IMG/VR virus record: IMGVR_UViG_3300005973_000002
DNA from: a virus
Taxonomy: Duplodnaviria > Caudoviricetes
DNA: 64,000 bases
Strand: one strand, 5' to 3'
Shown: one piece after another, positions 17,862-63,820 of the stretch
How positions within the stretch are numbered: position 1 is the stretch's first letter
Layout: each line of letters starts with the position of its first letter
Translations under genes and position numbers: made by a program
Notes under the pieces: generated by a model
Told to the model about the DNA's origin: nothing
Database searches by the model: none
What the model saw: only the letters and a program-made list of their open reading frames with translations

Positions 17862-17955
17862 TGGTAGGGCTAGAGGGGCTCGAACCCCCATCTCAGGTTT
17901 ATCAGACCTTAAGCCGGTTATAAACCGGTTGCATTCACCATTATGCTATAGCCCC
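17862..17955 (-). tRNA. tRNA-Ile with two anticodon arms (UAU and GAU)
   Basis: ACCGG-TTTATAA-CCGGC followed by AAGGT-CTGATAA-ACCTG; normal acceptor, D and T arms and CCA. Confidence 0.85.
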
Positions 17956-21976: not shown

Positions 21977-22444
21977 TTAATTATATCCGCCTTTACAATG
22001 TGTAGGTAATGTCGCATTACAATTTGGACATAAAAATCTTAGATTTTCTAATCTGTTATCATTTCTTATTCCATTTATATGGTCAAGAATCAATGATATC
22101 TTTTTTCCATTCCAATTATCATCCAATGGACACATAGAACAAGTGTAAGATATTAGTTTGTCTTTGACAATCCTATTTCTAAGAACAGATCTTGCAACTG
22201 TAGAATTTACTACAAATATATCTTTGTATCCTCTTTTGCTTAGAGATTTTGTCTGATACAAATAATTTGCCATTTCTTTTCTACCTAAAAAATGACTAGT
22301 GTCTATATTCCATTCTTTTATTTTCTTTTTTAGAGTTTTGTACGCAGAACTAGAAGCATTGCGCTCAAATTTATCTAAAACCATCTTGTAGCTCAATGAA
22401 ACTTTCACCGCTTCTTTTAGCGTTTTTTCTGTATATTGTTTCAT
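21977..22444 (-). CDS. HNH homing endonuclease
   Basis: CSMC...LDHINGIRNDNRLENLRFLCPNC; real start ATG 22444. Confidence 0.9.
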   Translation of the reverse strand: MKQYTEKTLKEAVKVSLSYKMVLDKFERNASSSAYKTLKKKIKEWNIDTSHFLGRKEMANYLYQTKSLSKRGYKDIFVVNSTVARSVLRNRIVKDKLISYTCSMCPLDDNWNGKKISLILDHINGIRNDNRLENLRFLCPNCNATLPTHCKGGYN

Positions 22445-22474
22445 AGAAATGCTCTTCCTTTGAGCTATGGGAGC
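22445..22474 (-). pseudogene. Orphan tRNA 5' half fused to the HNH start codon
   Basis: GCTCCCA-TA-GCTCAAAGGAAGAGC-A-TTTCT then ATG; D arm identical to tRNA-Arg(UCG) at 16614. Confidence 0.7.
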
Positions 22475-22500
22475 AAAGATAACTATCCTCAGCAAATCTA

Positions 22501-22588
22501 GTTTGCCGATGGGACTCGAACCCATACTGGACCGGGTTCGAGCTTTCGCCCTACTACCAGCGCCTCTGCCAAATTGGGCTACGGAGGA
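22501..22588 (-). ncRNA. tRNA-like element with an insert in the anticodon loop
   Basis: Leu-type D arm GCCCAATTTGGCAGAGGC; GCTGG/CCGGT stem around a 21-nt loop; T arm present; acceptor partly mismatched. Confidence 0.55.
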
Positions 22589-22592
22589 AAGT

Positions 22593-24937: not shown

Positions 24938-25351
24938 TCATCTATATTGTTTTCTTTTCCAAGTTCGTAACCTATGACAATTAGAACAGACTAATTCACA
25001 TTTTTTAATTTCTTCCAAAAGTCGTTTTTGAGAGAAACCATTTACAATCCCATCTGACAATTCGAAACTTTTATTGCCAAGATGATCAAAGTCCATGCAA
25101 ACAGGATGGTATGTTTTTTCACAATCAACACAAGGTGATTTTTTTATCTCCCACAAAAAATCCTTATTAAGTTTTTTTCGTTTGCGATCATAAGCCTTTT
25201 CTTTCTTTTGATTATTTCTATAATAATCAACTCTTGCTTTCGCAGCACAAACTTTACAGTAGGCTTGTAAACCTTTTTTACCAGATTTGTACGTTCTTGA
25301 ATGAAAGGCTTTATTAGATTTTTCTATCTTACATTTTATACATGTTTTCAT
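24938..25351 (-). CDS. HNH endonuclease
   Basis: CxxC motifs; CVDC...DFDH...CELVCSNCHRLR. Confidence 0.88.
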   Translation of the reverse strand: MKTCIKCKIEKSNKAFHSRTYKSGKKGLQAYCKVCAAKARVDYYRNNQKKEKAYDRKRKKLNKDFLWEIKKSPCVDCEKTYHPVCMDFDHLGNKSFELSDGIVNGFSQKRLLEEIKKCELVCSNCHRLRTWKRKQYR

Positions 25352-25356
25352 AATAA

Positions 25357-25428
25357 TGACCCTACGGAGACTCGAACTCCGATCACGAGATTGAAAGACT
25401 CGTATCCTTGCCGTTAGACGATAGGGCC
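25357..25428 (-). tRNA. tRNA-Glu(UUC)
   Basis: CTTTCAA loop. Confidence 0.9.
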
Positions 25429-25475
25429 AAAGGGAAATCCTTATTCAGTTTTCAAGGAAGAAACTTAGTATATCA

Positions 25476-25547: not shown

Positions 25548-25728
25548 GATTGTAAATATTGTTTTGCTCTTTCTAAAATCTCCACAGAATCCCTGAAAAG
25601 ACCTAATCCAGTATTACAACTACTGTAACGCTTGAAACTCCTGTTTGCAACTTTGACAAATCTTCGTTTCTTTTTTCTCTGTATCTCATGGTGTTAACAG
25701 TTTATCATGAGATAAAAAGACTGTTTAG

Positions 25729-25801
25729 TTGGCCCACTGGGAATCGAACCCAGATCTCAGCTTTATCAGAGCTGCGTGCTAAACCGCTCTACTATGGGCC
25801 A
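25729..25801 (-). tRNA. tRNA-Ile(GAU)
   Basis: CAGCT-CTGATAA-AGCTG. Confidence 0.92.
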
Positions 25802-25857: not shown

Positions 25858-26133
25858 TTACTTTTTGTCTAAATCTTCGATATCTTCAGGATACACATTT
25901 CCGTTTTCATCTCTCATGGGCTGATATTCTTCCCAACCCATAATTTCGTTTCTTTTCTGGGCTGCTTCCAGCCTGGTTTTTGCATTATATTCAGCAATCA
26001 GCTGAACCTTTTCTTTGAAAAATCCAAGACGGTATGCAATCGATTCTAGCCGATTTCTACGGCACTCGAAACTGTCTTTGGGTGATAGACTAATGCTGCC
26101 ATCATATTCATTTTCCCAGATTTGAAACAACAT
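25858..26133 (-). CDS. Hypothetical protein
   Basis: ORF starting after tRNA-Lys. Confidence 0.55.
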   Translation of the reverse strand: MLFQIWENEYDGSISLSPKDSFECRRNRLESIAYRLGFFKEKVQLIAEYNAKTRLEAAQKRNEIMGWEEYQPMRDENGNVYPEDIEDLDKK

Positions 26134-26144
26134 TGGTTTTCTCT

Positions 26145-26219
26145 TGGTGGGGCGCCTGGGAATCGAACCCAGCTCATTCGGCTTAAAAGGCCGTTGCATC
26201 GCCTTGATGCTAACACCCC
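26145..26219 (-). tRNA. tRNA-Lys(UUU)
   Basis: CTTTTAA loop, CCA. Confidence 0.92.
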
Positions 26220-26237
26220 AAATTTACATAGTTTATT

Positions 26238-26405
26238 TGGTGGAGCTTATTGAAGCTGTCGCCACCGGAATATTACATCCGAAACGTATTGCCCGGCGTC
26301 GCTTGTTCGGCGTCGGGGCGCCCGCCATTCCCTGCGAATCTCTTATTCTACCCTAGGTCGGCGCCAGTTTCAACCTCGTTTCCAGTTGAAACCTATTGCG
26401 TCTCA
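26238..26405 (-). ncRNA. Possible degenerate tmRNA-like RNA (about 165 nt)
   Basis: 5' GAGACGCAATAGGTTTCAAC resembles tmRNA 5' ends; 3' GCTCCACCA; GC-rich structured middle; no tag ORF seen. Confidence 0.3.
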
Positions 26406-26431
26406 AAATGTAACGAAGAAATTTAAAAGAC

Positions 26432-26653
26432 TCAGACAGTAGTTGCTGTCATTGCAGTCTGCATAGAATACTTCAGGCATTCAAGCTGAATGAGCGTCTT
26501 TTCAAGAACAACACCTGTGAGGCGCTCATCGCCATCCGTGCATTCCAATACAAAACTATGAACTTCACCTACGGTGAGTCGCCCATCTCGAATGGCAATT
26601 GCGAATCCCTTGACGAGATCATCAGCAGTATTAATTTGAAAGTTGCTGTACAT
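26432..26653 (-). CDS. Hypothetical protein
   Basis: 73 aa with upstream GGAGG. Confidence 0.55.
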   Translation of the reverse strand: MYSNFQINTADDLVKGFAIAIRDGRLTVGEVHSFVLECTDGDERLTGVVLEKTLIQLECLKYSMQTAMTATTV

Positions 26654-26730
26654 GTTTCCTCCTTAGGGATTTCTAAGGCTAAGGAAGGATAACATCCCAG
26701 GGTTTGAGAGTAAACCTTATTTCAAATTTC

Positions 26731-27021
26731 TTACCAGCCTGCTGCCTTGAGTTTGGCCTGTACTGCTTGCTTGATAAGTTCTTTTTGCTGAGGATCTTTT
26801 TCACCCTTCATTGCTGCAAGAAGCTGATCAAGATTCATATTTGCATTCAACCAAGGATTTTGGCCTGCTTTTGCAGCCTGGGCACGGCCTGGAGTGCCTC
26901 CGGGCTTAAAACCACTGCGCTGCTGTCCAGCTCCTGGTAAACCAGAAATTTGTTCATCAATTTGCTCACGTACGGCCTCACGGACCATTTCTTTAAGCTG
27001 TTTAAAGGTAAGTTTTGCCAT
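26731..27021 (-). CDS. Hypothetical protein with an N-terminal L-x-E helix motif (possible virion protein)
   Basis: KQLKEMVREAVREQIDEQ. Confidence 0.6.
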   Translation of the reverse strand: MAKLTFKQLKEMVREAVREQIDEQISGLPGAGQQRSGFKPGGTPGRAQAAKAGQNPWLNANMNLDQLLAAMKGEKDPQQKELIKQAVQAKLKAAGW

Positions 27022-27100
27022 TGTGTTTACTCCGATTGCAGTAATCTGCCTGTGAGTAAATAGTTGTCTTTAGGCATTATTCTTTTCTTAGAAAAAATTT

Positions 27101-27774
27101 TGGTCGTTCCGGGAAGAATCGAACTTCCATATTCGCTTTATCAGTCAACCAATCCAAGTTGGCGTAGTTTCTTCTTTACAGCAACGTCAGACACACCGAC
27201 AATTTTGGCTATTTCTGTATAGGTCATCTTGTTTTTTACAGCTAAACTCAAATCAACCTTTTCCCATTTACCTTTGATTTTAGTTTTGCCAACACAAGCC
27301 TGCGAACAATATTTTCGCAAATCAGATTTCAATTTACCACAATGTTTACAAGGTGTTAGATTTATATGTTTTTCTTTGCGATATTTCTCAAAAGAAAAAT
27401 CAAATCTAACAATATCTTTTGGGATTGTTGTGATTTCGTCATGAACTTCACGATGACAATTTGCACAAAGTAAAACACATTTTTTTGCTTCTTTTACTAG
27501 TTTTTCCCATCGTGCTACCTTGTTCCATTTTGAAAATGTGAAATCTTTTTCATCTTTATTTAGATGATGGAATTCTAAAGCTTTTAGTGTTTTACTGTAT
27601 CCACATATTCCGCATTTACTTCCAAAAGCCTCTTTGAGACGTTTAATGGTGCGTTCACGCCATGCTTTTACATACTTGTATTCTGCCATCGTCTAACCTC
27701 AATGCATAACTATATCATAGTTGGATATAAATCTATAGAGGTTCGATGCCCTTAGGCCATTAGACGACGGAACG
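27101..27774 (-). pseudogene. tRNA-Ile(GAU) split by an HNH gene (3' half 27101-27144; 5' half about 27745-27774)
   Basis: 5' acceptor CGTTCCG pairs fully with 3' CGGAACG-A-CCA; D arm upstream and CTGATAA loop plus T arm downstream of the HNH ORF. Confidence 0.85.
27141..27689 (-). CDS. HNH homing endonuclease inside tRNA-Ile
   Basis: CGICG..ALEFHH...KCVLLCANCHREVH; C-terminal HTH-like segment. Confidence 0.9.
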   Translation of the reverse strand: MAEYKYVKAWRERTIKRLKEAFGSKCGICGYSKTLKALEFHHLNKDEKDFTFSKWNKVARWEKLVKEAKKCVLLCANCHREVHDEITTIPKDIVRFDFSFEKYRKEKHINLTPCKHCGKLKSDLRKYCSQACVGKTKIKGKWEKVDLSLAVKNKMTYTEIAKIVGVSDVAVKKKLRQLGLVD

Positions 27775-27788
27775 ATATGCCGGATCAA

Positions 27789-27864
27789 TACAACAACAGT
27801 TGGATTCGAACCAACAACCTGGACTTTCATAGAGCCCCGCTCTACCATTGCAGCTATGTGTTGT
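27789..27864 (-). tRNA. Atypical tRNA with AUG (His) anticodon and bulged acceptor
   Basis: GGGCT-CTATGAA-AGTCC; acceptor ACAACACA/TGT-T-GTTGT. Confidence 0.65.
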
Positions 27865-27875
27865 AAAGGCGACAT

Positions 27876-27950
27876 TGGTCGGTCGCCTGGGAATCGAACC
27901 CAGCTCTGATGGATTAAGAGTCCAGTGCATCGCCTTGATGCTAACGACCG
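27876..27950 (-). tRNA. tRNA-Lys(CUU)
   Basis: CTCTTAA loop, CCA. Confidence 0.9.
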
Positions 27951-28045
27951 AAACGAAAGTTCACTCATGAGAAGTCATGGAATCCTGGCAGTGAACATTT
28001 CCAAAGTAAGCACTCTAGCCATTTTGATTCATTCGAGTTACTTAG

Positions 28046-28118
28046 TGGAGAATAAGGGATTCGAACCCTTGACTCCGGTGTGCAAGACCGGTGTGTTCCC
28101 AATTAGCACCAATTCCCC
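28046..28118 (-). tRNA. tRNA-Ala(UGC)
   Basis: G3:U70. Confidence 0.92.
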
Positions 28119-28314
28119 AAAAAACTTGCAACCGTCAAGCCATGCCCCCAGGGGGACCGCCAGACTGCCTCTCTGCCAAGAGGGAACTTGATGGTGGCAG
28201 CCATCTTGTTTCGTTGCTTGAATTTGCATCGTCTCTCCGACGTGTCAAGTCTAGTGCTCGGGAGTCCTTCAAAGTTTGAAGGGTCCTTTGCTGGGACGTA
28301 CCGACTTTCGAACC

Positions 28315-28390
28315 TGGCGGGACCGACGAGATTTGAACTCGCACCCTCTCCCGTGACAGGGGAGCGCACTGCCAATTATGCTACGGCCCC
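28315..28390 (-). tRNA. tRNA-Asp(GUC)
   Basis: CTGTCAC loop, G73, CCA. Confidence 0.92.
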
Positions 28391-28393
28391 AAA

Positions 28394-28512
28394 ACATGAC
28401 CTATAACAGATGATCAGTCTGTCAGGTGGTTGCCTATGGCAACTCTTACCATTTACATGACCTATAATCAATCGATCTCATTGATCAGGTAGATGTTCTC
28501 CATCTTTTACCA
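28394..28512 (-). repeat. Two tandem 58-nt copies of a covarying two-hairpin motif
   Basis: Copies at 28394-28451 and 28455-28512 share TGGTAARA...ACCTG...TATAGGTCATGT; stems differ in sequence but keep pairing. Confidence 0.75.
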
Positions 28513-28517
28513 GTTAG

Positions 28518-28592
28518 TCAGGATGGCGGGACTCGAACCCACATGATCCCGGCTCCAAACCGGGTGACTCAAACCAATTAGCCTACATCCTG
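28518..28592 (-). tRNA. tRNA-Pro(UGG)
   Basis: TTTGGAG loop. Confidence 0.9.
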
Positions 28593-28705
28593 TTGAAATT
28601 TCCCATTCCATTACCCATTGGACTTGAAGTGTCACGACTTGGCATGAACATTAAGGACTTGTAACCAACTTGCCGCTTCTGATATTCGGGGACACCTGGG
28701 AAATT

Positions 28706-28781
28706 TGGCATCTCTGGTAGGACTCGAACCTACACCCTACCGGGTAGAAGCCGGTGGCTCTTCCAATTGAGCTTCAGAGAC
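28706..28781 (-). tRNA. tRNA-Arg(UCU)
   Basis: CTTCTAC loop, CCA. Confidence 0.92.
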
Positions 28782-28865
28782 AAAAACCTGCCCAGATTAG
28801 GACTGCACTATCCAATCCAGCTCCATAAAGGTTTTTAGCGGTTTATTGACCGACAGGTATTTTAG

Positions 28866-28939
28866 CAGGCCACCAGAGACTCGAACTCTGACCTTCCGGT
28901 TTTGGAGACCGGCGTGCTACGCAATTACACCAATGACCT
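28866..28939 (-). tRNA. tRNA-Trp(CCA)
   Basis: CTCCAAA loop. Confidence 0.9.
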
Positions 28940-28948
28940 ATTATTTAG

Positions 28949-29036
28949 TGGGCCCCTAGGGATTCGAACCCTAAATGGGGATTGGTTACCCGCCTGGTTA
29001 AGAGCCAGGTGCCTTCAACCGTTCAGCCAGAGACCC
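28949..29036 (-). tRNA. tRNA-Lys(CUU) with a 19-nt variable arm
   Basis: CCTGG-CTCTTAA-CCAGG; class II-type D arm; variable CGGGTAACCAATCCCCATT. Confidence 0.85.
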
Positions 29037-29043
29037 ATGTTAG

Positions 29044-29115
29044 CGGGGCAGGTTGGATTCGAACCAACACTTTCTAGCTTCAGCTAGACGTGCTACCAAT
29101 TAACACTACCGCCCC
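29044..29115 (-). tRNA. tRNA-Phe(GAA)-like with a 6-nt anticodon loop
   Basis: TCTAG-CTGAAG-CTAGA; one base short, possibly a sequencing indel. Confidence 0.7.
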
Positions 29116-29193
29116 AAAAGCGTATTCAGTTGTCAAAGAGAACTATACTTTTGTAGCCTCAGGAAGCGCTACAAACAAATAAAAAGATTTTAG

Positions 29194-29266
29194 TGACCCC
29201 AGGGGGACTTGAACCCGCCACCTCATGCTTGAGAGGCATGCCACCTACCATTAGTTAGATGGGGCC
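29194..29266 (-). tRNA. tRNA-Glu(CUC)
   Basis: CTCTCAA loop. Confidence 0.9.
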
Positions 29267-29317
29267 AAAAAGATTTGATTGTGTAAAATCGTTCTCTGTT
29301 TCAAGAACGTAAGATAC

Positions 29318-29346
29318 AGTGTAGTACGTTATAAATAGGATGTCAA
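29318..29346 (-). promoter_or_regulatory. Sigma70-type promoter heading the tRNA array
   Basis: TTGACA, 17-nt spacer, TACACT, about 50 nt upstream of the first tRNA. Confidence 0.7.
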
Positions 29347-29446
29347 CCGGTTTTTTCCGGCCCCTGTGATTTTTCTCTCTTCGATTTCATCGAAAATTTA
29401 TTTCTCACAGGGATTATGACAACTTAGACGCCTTATTTGTATTGAG

Positions 29447-29761
29447 TCAGGCTTCAGTTTTTGTCAATTGACGTTGAGCATGCTCTCCCGAGCCTTCAAT
29501 TGCTGTTCCAGAACCCGATTCGCTTTCAGCATCAATCCATTCAATTACAGTCTTTCCACCATGTCCATGAATGTGGATCATTTCCACTGTACTATGGTAA
29601 ATACCAATACTCCGAGTATCAGTAAGCCAACTAATGACACACTGTCCGTCGGAGAACTTGATACCTTCGGCTACATAACCAGTGCCCGAAACACCACTCT
29701 CATCTTCATTACGCTTGAGGCGAAATCGACGAAGTTCTACTTTCCTTTTAGGTTCAGCCAT
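29447..29761 (-). CDS. Phage-type hypothetical protein
   Basis: RFRLKRNEDESGVSGTGYVAEG..FSDG..HGHGGKT. Confidence 0.65.
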   Translation of the reverse strand: MAEPKRKVELRRFRLKRNEDESGVSGTGYVAEGIKFSDGQCVISWLTDTRSIGIYHSTVEMIHIHGHGGKTVIEWIDAESESGSGTAIEGSGEHAQRQLTKTEA

Positions 29762-39029: not shown

Positions 39030-40205
39030 TCACTTTACAAGTTTTGTAAACAGCTCAGTCTCACGTCGTTCAATTTCTTGTCCGATTTCTCGTCCCTTTA
39101 AACCCTGAGCCATCAACTCTTGTCCACTCACGGATGGTTCGTATTTAATAAATGCATCTACCAAATTCATGTCCGGCTCACCACTAAGTTGAGCAAATTC
39201 CTTCAAGTCCTCAGGAGAAAGTCGTGTCGGCTTCCACAATTTTTTCAAATGATAAGCATTCTCGGGAGAAAGGTTTTGAAAAAGATTAAGAAAAGCAATT
39301 TGCCTAGTTTCAACTACACTGTATTTTAAGTTGTTTAACTTTTGAGACAAAACTTTAGGATTGTTATCTCGTGTAAGAAGAGCAAGTTGCACTGGGATGT
39401 TCTTTGTTTCTTCATACCACGTGTTTAGCTTTAACCCAGGTAAAATCTTTTCCCATAAATTGAAAGAGTCATAAAGACGATGTAAGGCCCTGACGGATTG
39501 GGCACTCTTAATGCTTTTCAAGAATTCATCTCTGATTCTTTCAGGCGACACACCCTCTAAGGAATTATTTGCCCTAATGGCGTCTTCGGTCGGTTTATCA
39601 AGCCCAGCACCCATACGAGCTGCAAATCTAATAGCTCGCAAAATTCTCAGTCTGTCCTCATCAAATCTTTCTGAGGGATCTCCAACAGCTCTAACCACAC
39701 CTTTTTCTAGATCTTCAAGACCGCCTACCAAGTCCACAACTTCTTGACTGTCGATGTCATAAAAAAGTGCGTTAATTGTAAGATCACGACGTTTCACATC
39801 ATTTTCAATAGTAGTAAACTCAACTGCATCGGGTCGTCGACCCACCAAAGACTTAAATTCTCGATATTCTTCTGGAAAAAGTTGTGCGGCTTTATTTTTC
39901 CAATTAGCCGACTCTGTCAACTTGTTTGTGGTTGTTGGGGTAAATGTGATAAAGATACCATCTGTAGGATCACCCTCCACGACACTGATACTATCAGTGC
40001 TGTACTCATCGAAAATTTTATAGTGTTCATCCCACCAATCTTCTTCGGGTGTACCTGCTTCATATCGACATCCGAGTGTATGAGTTTCAATGAACCAGCC
40101 ATTTACAATAACAGTATCACCACAAGTTCTTGCAGTCTTCAATTTAGCCAGAAGGTCATTTCCAGCCTTTTGAACGGTTGCAGGTAAATCTTCATACTTG
40201 GTCAT
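39030..40205 (-). CDS. cca: CCA-adding enzyme (tRNA nucleotidyltransferase), C-terminal piece
   Basis: DVKRRDLTINALFY, RFDEDRLRILRAIRF, VSPERIRDE; probable start ATG 40205 with GGAG 8 nt upstream. Confidence 0.85.
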   Translation of the reverse strand: MTKYEDLPATVQKAGNDLLAKLKTARTCGDTVIVNGWFIETHTLGCRYEAGTPEEDWWDEHYKIFDEYSTDSISVVEGDPTDGIFITFTPTTTNKLTESANWKNKAAQLFPEEYREFKSLVGRRPDAVEFTTIENDVKRRDLTINALFYDIDSQEVVDLVGGLEDLEKGVVRAVGDPSERFDEDRLRILRAIRFAARMGAGLDKPTEDAIRANNSLEGVSPERIRDEFLKSIKSAQSVRALHRLYDSFNLWEKILPGLKLNTWYEETKNIPVQLALLTRDNNPKVLSQKLNNLKYSVVETRQIAFLNLFQNLSPENAYHLKKLWKPTRLSPEDLKEFAQLSGEPDMNLVDAFIKYEPSVSGQELMAQGLKGREIGQEIERRETELFTKLVK

Positions 40206-40920
40206 CAACATATCTCCACATAAAACCACCAGCTTGTTTCCTGTACTTTTTGTTTCTGGCAGCACAGCTAATGTTTCTAATTCCCAAGTCTTTTTGAGCT
40301 TTATCAACACTTTCCCAAATTTGGATCATTTCACCGTCTAAAGTCATTTGCATTACTTTTTTCTTGTTCCAAGCTGATTTTCCTCTACGAGCTTTAGAAA
40401 TCTTCTGCTTTTGTGCTTCTGTACAAGGTTTTCCAAGTCTTCTGGTGTTACCTATAAGTGACTTGGAAATATTTTTCTTGTGTACAGAAGTTAATTTTCG
40501 ACCCTTATGCTGTCTAGCAACTTGTGCTATTTTTTGCTTCGCCTTCTCACTGTGCTTATAACCGTGAGATCCAACCTCTCCTCCAGAAGTGACATTTGTT
40601 AAATCACAACCTTTGTCTTTGAAATATTGAATCCAATACCGCTCTCGTTCTGTCAACAAACTTTCTTCACATTTTTCAATGGCAATTATCCTCAGTTTGG
40701 AGAGCAATCCTTTTCTCTCCAATAATCGCAACCAATTATTCTTATGCGAGTTATTCTTGTTCCTTCGATGCTTATGCTTAGAGAGTCTAACGTTTAGCTT
40801 TGATACAGTTTTACCAACATATCTGACCTCATTAGTCATTGGGCATACGAGCGAGTAGACGCAGCCTTTTCTTCCAGTTTTCTGGCTGTTTTTCTTGGAT
40901 GAATTTAACGAAACTTTCAT
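40192..40920 (-). mobile_element. GIY-YIG homing endonuclease inserted in cca
   Basis: VYSL..RYVGKT, RLSKH, ERYWI, NUMOD-like repeats. Confidence 0.9.
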
Positions 40921-41779
40921 AATCATCTTTTAAATATGAATCTTCACGGAAAGTTGCTATTTCATATTCATTGCCCTCAGGGGTTATAACATTGATAACA
41001 CCAAATGCCTTCCCAACTTCCATTGTTTTGTACTCTGGGAATTTCCTGATTATTTCAAGAATGCGATTAGGATTAGCATCTGTGGCCACATCATAATCCT
41101 TAGGTTCTTTACCCAGCAATGCATCCCGTACTGCTCCACCTACAACGTAAAGTTGATGTCCAGCTTTTGAAAAGATTTGTGATAATCTTTGAATGTCAGC
41201 AGGTATTTTCATATTAAAGGGCTTTCGCACTGATTCAACTAAGAAATTGAAATTTTCATTTAAAATTTCATCAATAAGCCATTTAACGCTTTCGTTTTTA
41301 GCCTCAGTTTCTTGGTTGTCTTTTTTTGGCACCTGATCCAGTGGCGAAGGTTGCTTTTTCTGCAAATATTTTTTAAACTTGCGCTCCCGTTTTTTGCGAG
41401 GTACAGTGTAATGTTTTTTTAACAACTGATCAATGGTAGATTGGTACCAGCGCTTTGCCTGTCCAGCAAGTTTGTTGTCATCTACAAAATGATCAATATA
41501 AAGACGCACTCCGTGCGTATCACCGGATTGACGTGGGTCCATATCTGGATCCATTTTAAGCAAGCCTGACAACTGGTCGAGTTTCTTGGTTGGAGAGTAT
41601 CCTCCCCTGACTGATGACACGGAAAACTTAGCAAGTTTAGTCAAATCATCATGAATTTCGGGAAAATTTTTCTTCATGTGATTAACGTAATCTTGCGATA
41701 GCTCCTCACGGTGTTCGAGCATGACTTCATCAAGCACTTCCTCAATCAAATATACAAGGTCTTTCTTTTTCATGGACAT
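40832..41779 (-). CDS. cca: CCA-adding enzyme, N-terminal catalytic piece with about 180 extra N-terminal residues
   Basis: LYVVGGAVRDALLGKEPKDYDVATDA, VGKAFGV, EIATFR. Confidence 0.88.
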   Translation of the reverse strand: MSMKKKDLVYLIEEVLDEVMLEHREELSQDYVNHMKKNFPEIHDDLTKLAKFSVSSVRGGYSPTKKLDQLSGLLKMDPDMDPRQSGDTHGVRLYIDHFVDDNKLAGQAKRWYQSTIDQLLKKHYTVPRKKRERKFKKYLQKKQPSPLDQVPKKDNQETEAKNESVKWLIDEILNENFNFLVESVRKPFNMKIPADIQRLSQIFSKAGHQLYVVGGAVRDALLGKEPKDYDVATDANPNRILEIIRKFPEYKTMEVGKAFGVINVITPEGNEYEIATFREDSYLKDDYESFVKFIQEKQPENWKKRLRLLARMPND

Positions 41780-58603: not shown

Positions 58604-58731
58604 ACATCAAGCTAATTGCTTAGCTATAGATAATTTCTTAAAATTGCTGTTTATCTTCTTTTGCGGACGAACTATACTAAAATACAGGTTGATACTTATG
58701 GTTCTGTTTGAACCTAGCGCAAAGGATATTA

Positions 58732-60480
58732 ATGAGCAATTACCCCAAGAAATTCGTTGGGCTTCATAGCCATAGCACATTCTCGATTGGGGATGCTATC
58801 GGCATGCCTCAAGATCATATTGACTTTGCCAGAGAAAACGGCATGGATGCGATAGCTCTTACTGATCATGGAAACATGAACGGATATTCGCATCAATATT
58901 TTCATGGGCAGAAACTTAAGAAAGAAGGCATAAACTTCAAGGCCATCCCTGGAATTGAAGCATATTTTGTTGATTCACTTTCAAAGTGGCGTGAACTTTA
59001 CGAGTCGGATAAAGAAAAGAAAAGACTCAAGAAGCTGGCTGAAAAGGGGGATCAAGATGCCTTGGAGGCGCTAAAGCGCAAAGGTGAACTTCTAGGAGAT
59101 CCATTTGCCGAAACAAAAGAACAGATGGATGAAGACATGGCTGGAGGCACAGTCGTTGAAAACGAAGAAGAATCAAAATCCAACAAGTTCAAAGACCCGA
59201 TTAAACAGCGCAATCACCTTGTTCTTCTCCCAAAAAACAACGAAGGGTTACAAGCACTATTCCAGCTCGTCACCGAGTCTTACATAAACGGCTTTTATCG
59301 TTATCCTCGAATCGATCTTGACCTACTTAAGAAGTATTCAAAAGGAAACATCATTGCACTTACAGCCTGTATTGCTGGTGTTCCAGCTCGCAAGGTGTTT
59401 GATCACCAGACAGAACCCGACTGGGAAAAATGGGGACCAACGCAAGAAAACTTCGAGCTGATTCAAAAAGATTTGAAAGAAATGGCTGACCAGTTCAAAT
59501 GGGCTCTCGGTGATGAGAATTTCTATTTGGAAATTCAGTTTAACGCACTTGGTGCGCAGCATCTGGTAAATCAACATCTTATTGAATGCAGCAAGAGAAC
59601 CAACACACTATTAGTTTGCACGGTTGATGCTCACTATTCCCACCCTGACCACTGGAAGGAAAGAGAAATTTACAAGATGATGGCTTGGTCTTCAAAGGGC
59701 CAGGCGATGGACAAATCCAAACTGCCCCAGAAAATCGATGAGCTTAAGTGTGAACTTTACCCCAAGAATGCTGAACAAGTTTGGGATTCATACAAGCGAT
59801 ACACTGATGGAAAAGGGTGGGATTTTTATGATGATGATGTAGTCCGAGAAGCAATTGAACGTTCGCACATTATTGCTCACGAGCAAATTGACACCATAGA
59901 TCCTGACACTTCTGTGAAACTACCTTCGATTTCATCAATGGTTGACGAATGCAGCATGAAAGAAATCGTAAGCAAGTACGGCAAAGAACTTGGCGATGAT
60001 GAAATTGCGTTTCAAGAATTGAAACGTCAGGCAATAGCTGGTATCAAGTCTCGTGGACTCGCAAATAACCAAGAATATGTTGATAGGCTCAAACACGAGT
60101 TACGTGTCGTGAAGTACCTTGGATTCTCCAAGTATTTCTTGACTTACTCCAAGATTATGGAAATAGTTTCTGAACACATGCTTATTGGTAACGCACGTGG
60201 ATGTTTCCTTCCAGGCTCTCGTGTTATGATGGCAGATGAAATGTTTGCCGAAATTGAAAATATTCTTGTCGGAGACAAAGTTATAGATGCCTTTGGTAAG
60301 GAGCAGACAGTTGAAAACACATTTGAATACGATGTGGATGAAGAGTGTATTGAACTGGAATTTGATGATGGCAGAGTGATTAAATGCACGAAGGACCATG
60401 AAATTCTAACGACAAATAGAGGTTGGGTAGAGGCTCAACATCTAACAGAAGAAGATAATGTGGCAGAAGTTAAACTTTAA
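58732..60480 (+). CDS. dnaE: DNA polymerase III alpha, N-part (PHP domain) plus split-intein N fragment
   Basis: LHSHSTFS, LTDHG, HLVLL, YRYPRID, DAHY; GNARG then CFLPGS. Confidence 0.93.
   Translation: MSNYPKKFVGLHSHSTFSIGDAIGMPQDHIDFARENGMDAIALTDHGNMNGYSHQYFHGQKLKKEGINFKAIPGIEAYFVDSLSKWRELYESDKEKKRLKKLAEKGDQDALEALKRKGELLGDPFAETKEQMDEDMAGGTVVENEEESKSNKFKDPIKQRNHLVLLPKNNEGLQALFQLVTESYINGFYRYPRIDLDLLKKYSKGNIIALTACIAGVPARKVFDHQTEPDWEKWGPTQENFELIQKDLKEMADQFKWALGDENFYLEIQFNALGAQHLVNQHLIECSKRTNTLLVCTVDAHYSHPDHWKEREIYKMMAWSSKGQAMDKSKLPQKIDELKCELYPKNAEQVWDSYKRYTDGKGWDFYDDDVVREAIERSHIIAHEQIDTIDPDTSVKLPSISSMVDECSMKEIVSKYGKELGDDEIAFQELKRQAIAGIKSRGLANNQEYVDRLKHELRVVKYLGFSKYFLTYSKIMEIVSEHMLIGNARGCFLPGSRVMMADEMFAEIENILVGDKVIDAFGKEQTVENTFEYDVDEECIELEFDDGRVIKCTKDHEILTTNRGWVEAQHLTEEDNVAEVKL
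60202..60477 (+). mobile_element. Split intein N fragment (92 aa)
   Basis: CFLPGSRV...CTKDHEILT.RGWVEA..L. Confidence 0.9.
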
Positions 60481-60592
60481 ACACCAGAAAAAAACACTTG
60501 AAGCGTTAATAAACGCTGTTTCTATTGTTCGGTAAAATTAATAGGTAAAACACCCCCAGGAGTGTTTCCAATAAACAAGCATAATTAAAAAT

Positions 60593-61512
60593 ATGGGTGG
60601 AAAAGTAACTTGTCCTAAGTTAACAAACGAACAAATTAAAGTTGTCAAGCAATTAAAGATCCATGTCTCACAGAAGAATTACTCAAACCGTATCTTTTAA
60701 AATGGGATTTGTCTTGGCATTCATTTAAACGTAGATTACGACGTTCTGGCTTAAGCCAAACATTTGCTTATTCCTGGAATGAGTTTCAAACTAACCCAAA
60801 ACTTCATAGCAAATACAATAAAAACAATCTCTATATAAGGTGCCCTTGTGGCAAAGATTATGTTTGTATAGTTTTTGGTTTTGTTAATAGAAAATACCAA
60901 GTTCCAGTTTGTGATGAATGTTATAAAACACAATATTCTTATGATGAAGAGTGGCGACAGAACAACAGTAAGGCACAGCTAATAGCCCAAAATAACCCAA
61001 AAACAATTGCCAAACAAAGAGCTTCGCAGAAGAAACGACATGCTCAACCTGGTATGAAAGAAAAATATAGAAAAATTGGGCTAAAACTGTGGGAAGATAA
61101 GAACTATCGTAAAAAAGTAATCAAAAATTCTTCCATAACCATGTCTGGTATTTACAAGAAAATTGAATATCAGAGTTCATATGAACTTGCTTTCATAATG
61201 TGGAACCTTGAACAAGGCAACGACATTAAACGGTTTGATTTGGAAGGTATTCCTTATTTGTGGGAAGGCAAAGAGCATAGATACTATTCTGATTTCATTG
61301 TTAATGAAAACAAAATAGTAGAGGATAAAGGTAAAGGAAGCATCTATAACAAACATAAAGAATTGTGCGCTACCAAAAACAAAGCATTGAAAGTTTGGTG
61401 CAGAAGCAATAGCTTTTATGATAGACTTGTATTTGATACAGACCTTTCAAAAGACCTAATCAAGAAGGCGAGAAAATGGCACAAGGAGAACTCCATTGGC
61501 AAAATTAGTTAG
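60593..61512 (+). CDS. Free-standing PD-(D/E)XK (TnsA-like) endonuclease between the dnaE halves, with a -1 indel near 60655
   Basis: YQSSYE..F, RYYSDFIV..IVEDKG; ATG 60593 joins the 60709 frame if one A is added at 60655-60657. Confidence 0.75.
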
Positions 61513-63820
61513 AAAAACACCCTTTCAATACAAGGGCAAAGTTCACGATCTTACCGTAAGTGAAAGCCACTCTTACAATATTGAAGGTTTAGGTGTTCAT
61601 AATTCAGCCGGCGGGTCTTTGCTTTCATACGTGTTAAACGTGACTCAACTTGATCCGATCAAGCATGGTCTTTTGTTCGAGCGTTTTCTTACCAGATTTA
61701 AGAAGGGCTTCCCAGACATCGACTCTGATTTTGCTGATCGAGAAAAGGCTGTTAAGCTAATCACAGAGCACTTTGGAGAAGAAAACGTCATTCCAATTTC
61801 AAACTTCAACCAGCTTCAATTGCGTTCCCTTATTAAGGATTTGTGTCGCTTGAACGGTGTTCCATTTGATGAGGTGAACAAATATACGAAGAAAATTGAG
61901 GCTGAAGCACTTTCAGAAGCTAAAAAGAAGCCAGGATTTGACGCACAGCAGTGGACCTTGACTTTCGATGAAGCTGATGATAAATCCGAAACCTTCCGCA
62001 AGCTTATGAAGGAATACCCGGATTTAGAGACACACATCAAAGTGCTCTTCAAGCAGATGCGAAATGTAAGTCGACATGCTGGCGGTGTCATTATCACTGA
62101 AAGTCCTGAACAACACATGCCGATTATCAAAAGTGGCGGTGTTTTACAAACGCCTTGGCAGGAAGGTCTTAACTTCCGTCATCTTGAGGGATTCGGGCTG
62201 TTAAAGTTCGACATCCTTGGCCTTGGAACACTCCGCATGTTTGAGAACTGCATTAAGCGAATCTTGAAGAAGCAGGGTATTAAGTACCCAACTTTCCGTC
62301 AAGTTAATAAGTGGTTCTATGAAAATCTCCATCCAGACAATAACTCGCTTGATGATATTGAAGTCTACAAGAATGTGTATTGGGAAGGCAATTGGGCTGG
62401 TGTTTTTCAGTTTGTACAGCCGCCTGTACAAAAGTTCGTAAAGAAAATGAAACCAGAAAGCATTCTGGACATCGCAACCGCAACATCTATCTTCCGCCCA
62501 GGTCCGCTTGGTATTGGCGCTGATAAGATGTATTTGAAAAACAGAAAAAACCCTGAAAGCATCCTTTATAAGCATCCACTACTCGAAGAAGTTCTTGCAC
62601 CAACTTGCGGTCTTCTCGTATTCCAGGAGCAGTTGCAACTCATTTACCACAAGCTTGCGGGTGTTCCATTAGAAGAAACGGATGGCATTCGTAAAGCTCT
62701 CTTGAAGAAGGACAAGTCTAACAAGAAAGAGCAAGAAAGATACTTGCGTGAATTACGAGAAGAATTTGCTAATAAAGCACTTGAAACTAATAATATTCCT
62801 AAGTCTACCAGCTATGACATTTTCGAGGAAATGGCCACATTCGTAGCGTATTCATTCAATAAATCTCACGCTACAGCATACGCAATTACATCATATCAGT
62901 GTGCATGGTTGCTTACACGCTACCCTGAGGAGTGGGTTGCTTCTTATATTGATTATTGTGCCACAGAAAAAGGTACGGTTACAGGTAAAGAGTCTCCTCT
63001 ATCGGTAGCACTTGGAGAGGCTAAGGGGTTGGGCTTTAAGATCGGTAAACCAGATATCAATAAGTCCGAGATTGATTACCAGGTAAAAGACAAGACTCTG
63101 GTGCCCAGCTTCCAAGCATTGAAACATGTAGGTTTGCCAGCCCTTAGAGAAATTGATCAATATCGCCCATACGAAAAGATTGAAGACCTCTTGTGGAATC
63201 CTGATGAAAGCTGGCGTCATAGCAAGTTCAACAAGAGAGCAATGTCTACGCTTGTAAAGCTAGAGGCTTTCAATTCTATGGGACTGGTTGGACCAGATAA
63301 AGAATTCAAAAACTATCGACAACTTTACTATGTTTTGGTTGATCAGGTTGATGAAATTAAGCGAGCCTGCAACAGAAAGAAAGCGCCAAGACCACCAGAA
63401 GTTCTAGCTAAACTTATAAGGGAAGCTCAAGAGCTTGAAGATTGGTCAGTTGATGAAAAGATCAAACACAGTCAAAATCTATCAGGAACTGTGGACATCA
63501 GTTTAATTCTAACAGAGCAAATCAGAAGTTATCTTGAGTCACAGGGAATTGGTTCGGTTGATGAGTGGAAGTTTGATAATCAAGTTCTATGGTGTGTGGT
63601 AAAGCGAAGCATGGTAGCCAAGACTAGAAACGGAAAACCATACCTTCGTATGAAAGTTTATGGTGAATCTGGCCAAGAACAGCATTGTTTCGTTTGGGGA
63701 TACAAGCCTGGGCAGCACGGCATAGTCCCTAACAACACTTTGATAATTGGCAAGTTCAAAAAAAGTGATTTTGGTCTTTCAAGTTTCTATGCTAGTATTG
63801 ATGTTCTTGAACGCAAATAG
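61496..63820 (+). CDS. dnaE: Split-intein C fragment (36 aa) plus DNA polymerase III alpha C-part
   Basis: VHDLTV.ESHSYNIEGLGVHN|SAGGSLL; FPDIDSD, RHAGG, KFDILGL, AYSFNKSHA; TTG start with AAGGAG upstream. Confidence 0.93.
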   Translation: MAKLVRKTPFQYKGKVHDLTVSESHSYNIEGLGVHNSAGGSLLSYVLNVTQLDPIKHGLLFERFLTRFKKGFPDIDSDFADREKAVKLITEHFGEENVIPISNFNQLQLRSLIKDLCRLNGVPFDEVNKYTKKIEAEALSEAKKKPGFDAQQWTLTFDEADDKSETFRKLMKEYPDLETHIKVLFKQMRNVSRHAGGVIITESPEQHMPIIKSGGVLQTPWQEGLNFRHLEGFGLLKFDILGLGTLRMFENCIKRILKKQGIKYPTFRQVNKWFYENLHPDNNSLDDIEVYKNVYWEGNWAGVFQFVQPPVQKFVKKMKPESILDIATATSIFRPGPLGIGADKMYLKNRKNPESILYKHPLLEEVLAPTCGLLVFQEQLQLIYHKLAGVPLEETDGIRKALLKKDKSNKKEQERYLRELREEFANKALETNNIPKSTSYDIFEEMATFVAYSFNKSHATAYAITSYQCAWLLTRYPEEWVASYIDYCATEKGTVTGKESPLSVALGEAKGLGFKIGKPDINKSEIDYQVKDKTLVPSFQALKHVGLPALREIDQYRPYEKIEDLLWNPDESWRHSKFNKRAMSTLVKLEAFNSMGLVGPDKEFKNYRQLYYVLVDQVDEIKRACNRKKAPRPPEVLAKLIREAQELEDWSVDEKIKHSQNLSGTVDISLILTEQIRSYLESQGIGSVDEWKFDNQVLWCVVKRSMVAKTRNGKPYLRMKVYGESGQEQHCFVWGYKPGQHGIVPNNTLIIGKFKKSDFGLSSFYASIDVLERK

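Follow-up and report, generated by a model that had tools for sequence, protein, structure and literature searches.

The window analysed here is the whole 64,000-nucleotide (nt) stretch of IMG/VR virus record IMGVR_UViG_3300005973_000002 (Caudoviricetes), and our subject is a tRNA-Ile(GAU) gene in it that is split by the gene of an HNH homing endonuclease. The tRNA gene lies on the minus strand at 27101-27774 and is interrupted by an insert of about 599 nt (Table 1; sequences are read on the minus strand). ARAGORN finds 49 tRNA genes in the window, and those around the locus are all on the minus strand. With introns allowed, it also reports the split gene, closing the anticodon arm only by a poor ad hoc solution. 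What an earlier note on this DNA had described here is borne out. The acceptor strands of the two halves are fully complementary (7/7 pairs, CGTTCCG/CGGAACG); the HNH stop codon, TGA at 27143-27141, is U33-G34-A35 of the anticodon loop; and little of the insert, about 52-54 nt, is non-coding. Simple rejoining of the halves leaves two anticodon-stem mismatches, A·G at 30-40 and A·A at 31-39, and the intact Ile(GAU) gene that the note had placed near 25729 is indeed present, at 25728-25801. In the 5′ half, the AA and C that come after base 29 are insert or junction and no longer tRNA. The insert has no 3′ untranslated part. Its stop codon is now provided by the anticodon loop, since members of the protein family end at most two codons from the same place in an alignment of 26 homologs.

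Table 1. Features of the split tRNA-Ile(GAU) locus and its intact paralog
Feature	Position	Strand	Details
tRNA-Ile(GAU), 5′ half	27741-27774	−	acceptor CGTTCCG, D arm GTCT/GGGC, A26, then TCGAA + C
5′ half, acceptor strand	27768-27774	−	
5′ half, D arm	27748-27765	−	
5′ half, A26	27747	−	
5′ half, anticodon-stem bases 27-29	27744-27746	−	TCG
tRNA-Ile(GAU), 3′ half	27101-27144	−	
3′ half, anticodon loop	27138-27144	−	CTGATAA
3′ half, 3′ anticodon strand	27133-27137	−	AGCGA
3′ half, variable region		−	ATAT
3′ half, T arm	27112-27128	−	GGAAG/CTTCC
3′ half, acceptor strand	27105-27111	−	CGGAACG
3′ half, discriminator		−	A
3′ half, CCA	27101-27103	−	
Inserted homing-endonuclease cassette, ~599 nt	27145-27743	−	54-nt leader + HNH open reading frame; replaces tRNA positions 30-31
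HNH homing endonuclease gene, 182 residues	27141-27689	−	stop TGA inside the tRNA anticodon loop
Intact paralogous tRNA-Ile(GAU)	25728-25801	−	ARAGORN tRNA list
Hairpin, 5′ arm	27759-27770	−	tRNA positions 5-16, CCGTCGTCTAAT
Hairpin, 3′ arm and ribosome-binding site	27686-27700	−	Shine-Dalgarno GAGG 27697-27700, spacer, ATG 27687-27689; GTTAGACGATGG is the arm of the 12-bp helix
Alternative or second helix, AACCTC	27738-27743	−	with GAGGTT
Extended −10-like element, by eye	27709-27717	−	TGATATAGT; between the hairpin arms; conserved in contigs L011 and L012

The HNH protein also occurs, unchanged, on contigs of up to 461 kb from hypersaline-lake metagenomes, six of which match the region at 100% identity. 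Among the products encoded in the window are an SLT transglycosylase, a DnaE-type polymerase of the bacterial kind and a T4-type terminase, and a Shine-Dalgarno (SD) sequence accompanies the HNH gene. Because of the transglycosylase, the polymerase and the terminase, the source is, as far as gene content can tell, a very large phage of bacteria. With a bacterial host, a protein-spliced tRNA intron of the archaeal type would not be expected.

The 182-residue open reading frame (ORF) matches HNH families of PHROG with E values of 1e-27 to 1e-21, and its matches to Pfam HNH models are weak. According to the alignment of 26 homologs, the protein has an N-terminal HNH region with the pattern CxxC...HH...CxxCH, a central Cys4 finger and a C-terminal helix-turn-helix; C26, C29, H41, H42, C75, C78 and H79 are invariant. 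The ratio of nonsynonymous to synonymous substitution rates (dN/dS) between the window and two relatives carrying the same cassette (contigs L011 and L012, see below) is 0.17-0.26, and the gene is, judged from these sequence comparisons, a live protein gene under purifying selection. A profile built from the homologs retrieved 524 relatives in IMG/VR, and 80 loci were kept for a neighbourhood count. At 76 of these 80, tRNA genes lie at most 1.5 kb away, and very often they directly abut the ORF. ORF44 of phage Felix O1 (NC_005282.1) is a member of this HNH family (47% identical across the N-terminal 93 residues), and its end overlaps the first 7 nt of a tRNA-Ile(GAU) gene; the Felix O1 genome paper names six HNH genes and the tRNA-Ile(GAU) without connecting them (PMC3185647). 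Downstream of a 71%-identical homolog (contigs L010 and L013), a tRNA-Ile(GAU)-like gene starts after 17 nt, and downstream of a 61%-identical homolog, a tRNA-Ala follows after 10 nt. Given these tRNA neighbours, at the IMG/VR loci as well as in Felix O1 and next to the two homologs, the family is, by its genomic context, one of tRNA-cluster homing endonucleases with a tRNA-Ile-linked branch, an HNH counterpart of T4 SegB.

The tRNA-Ile(GAU)-like gene beside the 71%-identical homolog (L013:1443-1570, L010:1104-1203) is peculiar in itself. It has a perfect acceptor stem, CCACGCT/AGCGTGG followed by ACCA, and a perfect anticodon arm, TTCGC CTGATAA GCGAA. Its T loop, GGCAGTA, and its D region are non-canonical, and both ARAGORN and the Rfam tRNA model pass it over. 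It may be a spare tRNA, either resistant to cleavage or rewired.

Relatives of the locus turned out to include both invaded and uninterrupted alleles. A compost contig, coming from the contigs of four weakly matching runs, spans 27100-27797 at about 95% identity and was fetched as L011; a second cassette-bearing relative, L012, was reached through the HNH protein cluster. In a three-way alignment, both have the same cassette and the same junctions as the window. The cassette DNA is 96% (L011) and 91% (L012) identical to that of the window, with synonymous divergence (dS) of the HNH gene at 0.107 and 0.285, respectively. Between the window and L012, similarity stops at the tRNA 3′ end: the HNH gene is 91.4% identical at the nucleotide level, versus 55.7% for the adjacent gene of 96 codons, whose dS is saturated and whose dN is 0.435. 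That the cassette is far more alike than the flanking gene argues that it has moved between phages.

Uninterrupted alleles were found via two diverged homologs of the 96-residue protein encoded just downstream (contigs L094 and L095). Upstream of the orthologous gene, L094 has an uninterrupted tRNA-Ile(GAU) at 2211-2282 (Rfam tRNA, 57.7 bits). Its acceptor (CGTTCCG), D and T arms match those of the window, and the anticodon arm (TGCCG CTGATAA CGGCA) pairs perfectly. L095 begins inside a second intact allele at the locus, which is partial (anticodon arm CCGCT CTGATAA AGCGG, acceptor 3′ strand TGGGACG). Each of these two contigs also holds a second Ile(GAU) paralog. The HNH gene is present in the window, L011 and L012 and absent from the same locus in L094 and L095. 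The 5′ half is identical to L094 through GGGCAT and diverges beyond. Alignments of the halves with the intact alleles place the insertion point after tRNA position 29, with two tRNA bases (CT in an L095-like allele) replaced by AA. It is because the intact alleles define the junctions that the insert can be given as about 599 nt, namely the 54-nt leader plus the ORF. Other searches gave no further alleles: megablast of the locus DNA against GenBank phages returned no match, exact and degenerate 5′-half patterns found none in IMG/VR and JGI metagenomes, and a single-protein locus search in IMG/VR found nothing.

Among the three invaded alleles, the acceptor stems differ and are all paired 7/7 (CGTTCCG/CGGAACG in the window, CGTGCCG/CGGCACG in L011 and CCTCCCG/CGGGAGG in L012), and the D and T stems are unchanged. 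All three have AA at positions 30-31, which in no case pairs with positions 39-40. Nowhere does the three-way alignment vary more than in the 3′ strand of the anticodon stem (AGCGA, CGTGG and (A)GCGAC). Together with the variable loop, this strand makes up window positions 27129-27137, which correspond to tRNA positions 39-47 and read AGCGAATAT, CGTGGATAT and GCGACAAAC in the three HNH-bearing alleles, and this stretch might be a recognition or nicking site of the nuclease. Another short element, TATTTACTC (window 27055-27062), is located about 35 nt upstream of the start of the 96-codon gene and is kept in four very diverged relatives (the window, L012, L094 and L095). It is not enriched across the window and may be a gene-specific promoter or operator.

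The 5′ half of the tRNA has a second partner besides its own 3′ half. The earlier note had pointed to pairing between this half and the start of the HNH gene, and the resulting 12-bp hairpin is real: nucleotides 27770 to 27759 pair with 27697 to 27686, across the AUG, at 12 of 12 positions, two of them as G·U. The pairing of AACCTC with the GAGGTT of the SD sequence, also claimed there, is equally found, and the minimum free energy fold (−28.2 kcal/mol) contains both helices. The note had named a loss of complementarity in homologs as one outcome that would speak against its proposal; L011 and L012 keep the helix. In shuffled sequences, runs of at least 12 contiguous pairs occur with P = 0.00125 for the SD-AUG segment and P = 0.0034 for the whole leader. 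The duplex energies in the window, L011 and L012 are −22.7, −21.7 and −19.5 kcal/mol versus about −11 to −13 kcal/mol in shuffles (−12.3 ± 3.0 in those of the window; P 0.0005-0.02 over the three alleles). The fold of the whole region alone is unexceptional (z = −1.79). All three substitutions in the free arm, a C to T in L011 and two A to G in L012, keep pairing as G·U. The homologs of 61% and 71% identity have unrelated leaders; the complementary arm therefore belongs to the window-type cassette in its tRNA setting. In L011 (1884-1990), a change of acceptor T4 to G, accompanied by 3′ compensation, extends the hairpin to 14 contiguous pairs, via codon 2 (GCA), which may be a coincidence.

By analogy, the hairpin probably represses translation of the HNH gene. 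T4 homing endonuclease genes are described as having, as a rule, their ribosome-binding site (RBS) sequestered on read-through transcripts, and the T4 SegB paper adds that tRNA processing at the ORF end has been proposed to limit expression (PMC2330249). The element TGATATAGT between the hairpin arms could, if its −10-like letters mark a promoter, give transcripts that are devoid of the inhibitory 5′ arm. A consensus promoter scan, which requires a −35 box, found none on the HNH strand and did not report TGATATAGT. Another candidate, a phage promoter motif (TATTTACT) that is kept in front of the neighbouring gene, was rejected: the window shows no enrichment of it, and the HNH leader lacks it.

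Taken together, it seems to us reasonably likely that a mobile HNH gene has killed one of two redundant tRNA-Ile(GAU) copies, and that the halves left behind serve as immunity, homology arms and RBS mask. On this reading, the 5′ strand of the tRNA-Ile(GAU) anticodon stem took up an HNH cassette of a type that stands free in phage tRNA clusters. The carrier genome would then be safe from cleavage, since its own target site is split. The tRNA halves (34 and 44 nt) would be portable homology arms, permitting homing into the intact tRNA-Ile of even distantly related phages. Each homing event would draw the outer parts of the tRNA, both acceptor strands included, from a working recipient allele, and because the outer parts come from working alleles, the acceptor, D and T arms would be pristine and the acceptor stems would appear to covary. 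On read-through transcripts of the heavily transcribed tRNA array, the RBS would be sequestered and nuclease synthesis probably kept low. Cleavage of the uninterrupted allele by the enzyme is, on the analogy of known systems, a predicted activity only. The split tRNA-Ile copy is, by the look of its sequence, most likely dead. It would be dispensable because of the intact Ile(GAU) paralog, and the earlier note had likewise thought a mature tRNA doubtful, in line with an anticodon stem that is broken in every invaded allele.

Several observations fit this scheme poorly or lend themselves to another. The three acceptor differences are fully compensatory, and the D, T and acceptor stems are undamaged in every allele; intact, compensated stems are also what one would expect if the split RNA were under selection. 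The changes in the hairpin are one-sided and of the G·U type, with a rough chance of about 0.03 for three out of three; as the opposite arm consists of tRNA sequence, double compensations are absent. Positions 39-47, which are 8-16 nt from the junction, differ more between alleles than the synonymous sites of the HNH gene, which would not be expected from simple co-conversion; the cause may be patchy repair or an escape from renewed cleavage. The silence of the Rfam group I model is weak evidence, since it also missed an ORF-bearing insert on contig L076 that is group I-like by eye. Finally, no RNA run was found to cover the region, and the halves may yet be spliced or put to some other use.

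The insert could, in principle, be a real intron, either an unrecognised self-splicing RNA that overlaps the ORF or one removed by proteins of the phage or the host, so that a working tRNA-Ile is made after all. It is located in the anticodon arm, the site of bacterial tRNA group I introns (Williams 2020, bioRxiv 10.1101/2020.01.27.920355); ARAGORN takes the simply rejoined window sequence as a tRNA-Ile(gat); HNH relatives reside in tRNA-Asn and tRNA-His genes whose exons rejoin perfectly (see below); and phage introns that carry an ORF tend to escape the Rfam group I model, for which same reason Williams needed a model specific for bacterial tRNAs (bioRxiv 10.1101/2020.01.27.920355). Nevertheless, we consider such an intron highly improbable. 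Rfam Intron_gpI has no match in 26000-29500 (E up to 1) or in 27080-27790 (711 nt, E up to 10), and with only 54 nt of non-coding sequence there is, as the earlier note had argued, no room for a group I core. Codons with synonymous changes only are spread evenly over the four quarters of the ORF (8, 9, 5 and 6), therefore no conserved RNA core is hidden in the coding sequence. The candidate junctions (5′: G29|A or C32|C; 3′: A|C32 or C32|T33) lack U(−1) and G(omega), and two tRNA bases are replaced relative to the intact alleles. No excision yields a 5-bp anticodon stem in any of the three invaded alleles, and alternative splice registers that would give such a stem in all three do not exist. 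After rejoining, the stem is mismatched at the two positions nearest the loop in both the window and L011, and is worse in L012; the A·G and A·A would widen the rejoined anticodon loop to 11 nt. The intron-allowed solutions of ARAGORN disagree with one another, calling Glu(ctc) for the window and Ala(cgc) for L011, and have poor stems. A group I intron was rejected on the missing Rfam match, the 54 non-coding nt, the synonymous spread, the junction bases and the stem that cannot be restored; as for removal by proteins, the host is bacterial, so the bulge-helix-bulge splicing machinery would be unexpected.

The remaining alternatives accept that the tRNA is disrupted and differ in what they make of the halves and of the hairpin. 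Selection may maintain the halves as a tRNA-like structure for the benefit of the HNH transcript, with RNase P and 3′ processing freeing the mRNA from the array precursor and shielding its ends, or, as the earlier note had proposed, with tRNA folding competing against the RBS hairpin and so gating translation. We hold this to be rather unlikely, and still more doubtful seems the specific version in which a tRNA-shaped frame is under selection and the competition of the hairpin with the cloverleaf, RNase P or CCA processing times nuclease production; were it true, one cassette would carry its own homology arms, immunity and riboregulator. Acceptor stems paired 7/7 in three alleles with three compensatory pair changes, and D and T stems that stay intact as the anticodon stem decays, are what such selection would produce. 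Moreover, the hairpin, which is conserved, and the cloverleaf are mutually exclusive, and tRNA processing at the ORF end is a limit on expression proposed in the T4 SegB paper (PMC2330249). However, the intact alleles at the locus show a like diversity of stems (CGTTCCG in L094, TGGGACG in L095, different T and anticodon stems), and the cassette is much more similar between phages than its flanks, so that the covariation can derive from working recipients. We therefore rejected acceptor covariation as proof of selection on the split RNA, given that intact alleles are equally diverse and flanks far more diverged. In addition, about 640 nt, a translated ORF among them, separate the two acceptor strands, no invaded allele has an unbroken anticodon stem, and the close HNH homologs L007, L010 and L013 function without flanking halves. 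RBS sequestration on read-through transcripts is, by analogy with T4, a simpler known model than a tRNA-folding gate, which none of the results speaks for or requires, and a recent spread of the cassette between phages into functional tRNA-Ile genes accounts more simply for how intact the halves look. It is also conceivable, though improbable in our estimation, that the tRNA was disrupted by homing as proposed above and the hairpin is accidental, without effect on expression, for example as the remnant of an inverted D-arm-like piece within the leader of the cassette. On the plus strand, 27686-27700 does resemble a tRNA D-arm segment (ATCGTCTAAC, compare tRNA-Glu at 25356-25429), the whole-leader fold is not significantly stable, and the substitutions are of the G·U type only. 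Against an accident stand the chance of about 0.001-0.003 for at least 12 contiguous pairs, the duplex energies of −19.5 to −22.7 kcal/mol in all three alleles, the position of the helix, which covers exactly the spacer and the AUG as the second helix covers the SD, and the T4 rule of RBS sequestration itself.

Two HNH relatives lie inside other tRNA genes, tRNA-Asn(GTT) (L081:1360-2181) and tRNA-His(GTG) (L086:1347-2155), and here the exons rejoin to perfect tRNAs. The inserts, of 747 and 735 nt, share the 5′ motif AATGTAAGTAGCA, and Rfam detects no group I core in them. Immediately upstream of the 3′ exon, each has a T-arm-like hairpin, and the two hairpins differ by compensatory changes (TTGAG/CTCAA versus ATAAG/CTTAT around TTCAAAT). 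These inserts may be genuine introns with an ORF, or else cassettes that brought along part of a previous tRNA host. An IMG/VR phage contig, L076 (168-861, 996-1279 and 2703-3398), has two more tRNAs interrupted by inserts of about 600 nt, whose ORFs are not of the HNH type. The first of these inserts includes the group I-like element GTCCAGACTACA, and the contig also has a tmRNA gene (Rfam, 61.5 bits).

Homing endonucleases are known from phage tRNA clusters, and the literature that we searched places them beside, not inside, tRNA genes. T4 SegB, a GIY-YIG enzyme, is a free-standing endonuclease of a tRNA cluster that cuts inside the tRNA genes of relatives without SegB (PMC2330249), and the HNH enzymes F-TflI/II/IV of T5 are, as Akulenko 2004 is cited there, free-standing homing endonucleases in a phage tRNA cluster (PMC2330249). 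As in those systems, the gene described here belongs to a phage tRNA array and is polymorphic in presence and absence between related phages; there, the target is inside a tRNA gene, and expression is thought to be limited by RBS hairpins and/or tRNA processing. Unlike SegB and the F-Tfl genes, which lie between tRNA genes, it is found within a tRNA gene, which it destroys, and the partner in its hairpin is the 5′ half of that tRNA. Its product also differs from SegB in being an HNH protein, whose cleavage activity is a prediction. Closest in family and in tRNA species is Felix O1 ORF44, in that there, too, the end of the ORF touches a tRNA-Ile gene. However, the Felix O1 tRNA is intact and downstream of the ORF, in contrast to an ORF inside the tRNA with its stop in the anticodon loop.

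A different kind of precedent is the nrdA gene of Aeromonas phage Aeh1, which is split by the HNH gene mobE (mentioned in PMC2330249). Its NrdA halves reassemble into a working enzyme. The likeness is that an endonuclease gene of the free-standing type sits in a host gene without intron or intein; the difference is that the tRNA halves form no working anticodon arm, and a paralog covers the function. With the group I introns of tRNA anticodon loops, the locus shares an interruption within the anticodon arm, but it has no detected catalytic core and no U(−1)/G(omega), two tRNA bases are lost, and rejoining is non-canonical. The hairpin resembles those of T4 I-TevI and the seg genes, in which the SD and AUG are buried on transcripts that start upstream (PMC2330249). 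In contrast to these, the upstream arm is a piece of a tRNA gene, and an internal promoter is here only a candidate.

If our preferred scheme of a homing cassette in a dead tRNA copy holds, the gene would occupy its own probable target, and the halves would appear to be triple-purpose, shielding the carrier through the split target, acting as homology arms whose shortness and conservation suit transfer between very distant phages, and providing one arm of the RBS hairpin. The scheme would also offer a concrete way in which tRNA genes are turned over and decay in the large tRNA arrays of huge phages. For annotation, it is a warning that long-intron tRNA calls in phage arrays may be dead genes. 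Since intact and invaded alleles are both in public data, cleavage and homing can be directly tested.

The window has other signs of mobile elements. A second HNH gene in the tRNA array, at 21977-22525 (PHROG E 1e-41), has its start inside a T-arm-like sequence (ATG GGTTCGAGTCCC), comes after tRNA-like remnants and is separated by 3 nt from a tRNA-Arg(ACG) downstream (region 22526-22592). A third HNH gene, at 24938-25351, begins 5 nt past tRNA-Glu(UUC). The CCA-adding enzyme (PolyA_pol head domain) is encoded in two ORFs with another ORF between them (39030-41779), and the DnaE-type polymerase is likewise found in two ORFs, the first of which ends in a segment like those of intein splicing (58708-63820). 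The genome of this phage is rich in genes split by mobile elements. Elsewhere in the window, at 17862-17955, a 94-nt call of tRNA-Ile(UAU) encloses a second complete stem-loop that displays GAU.

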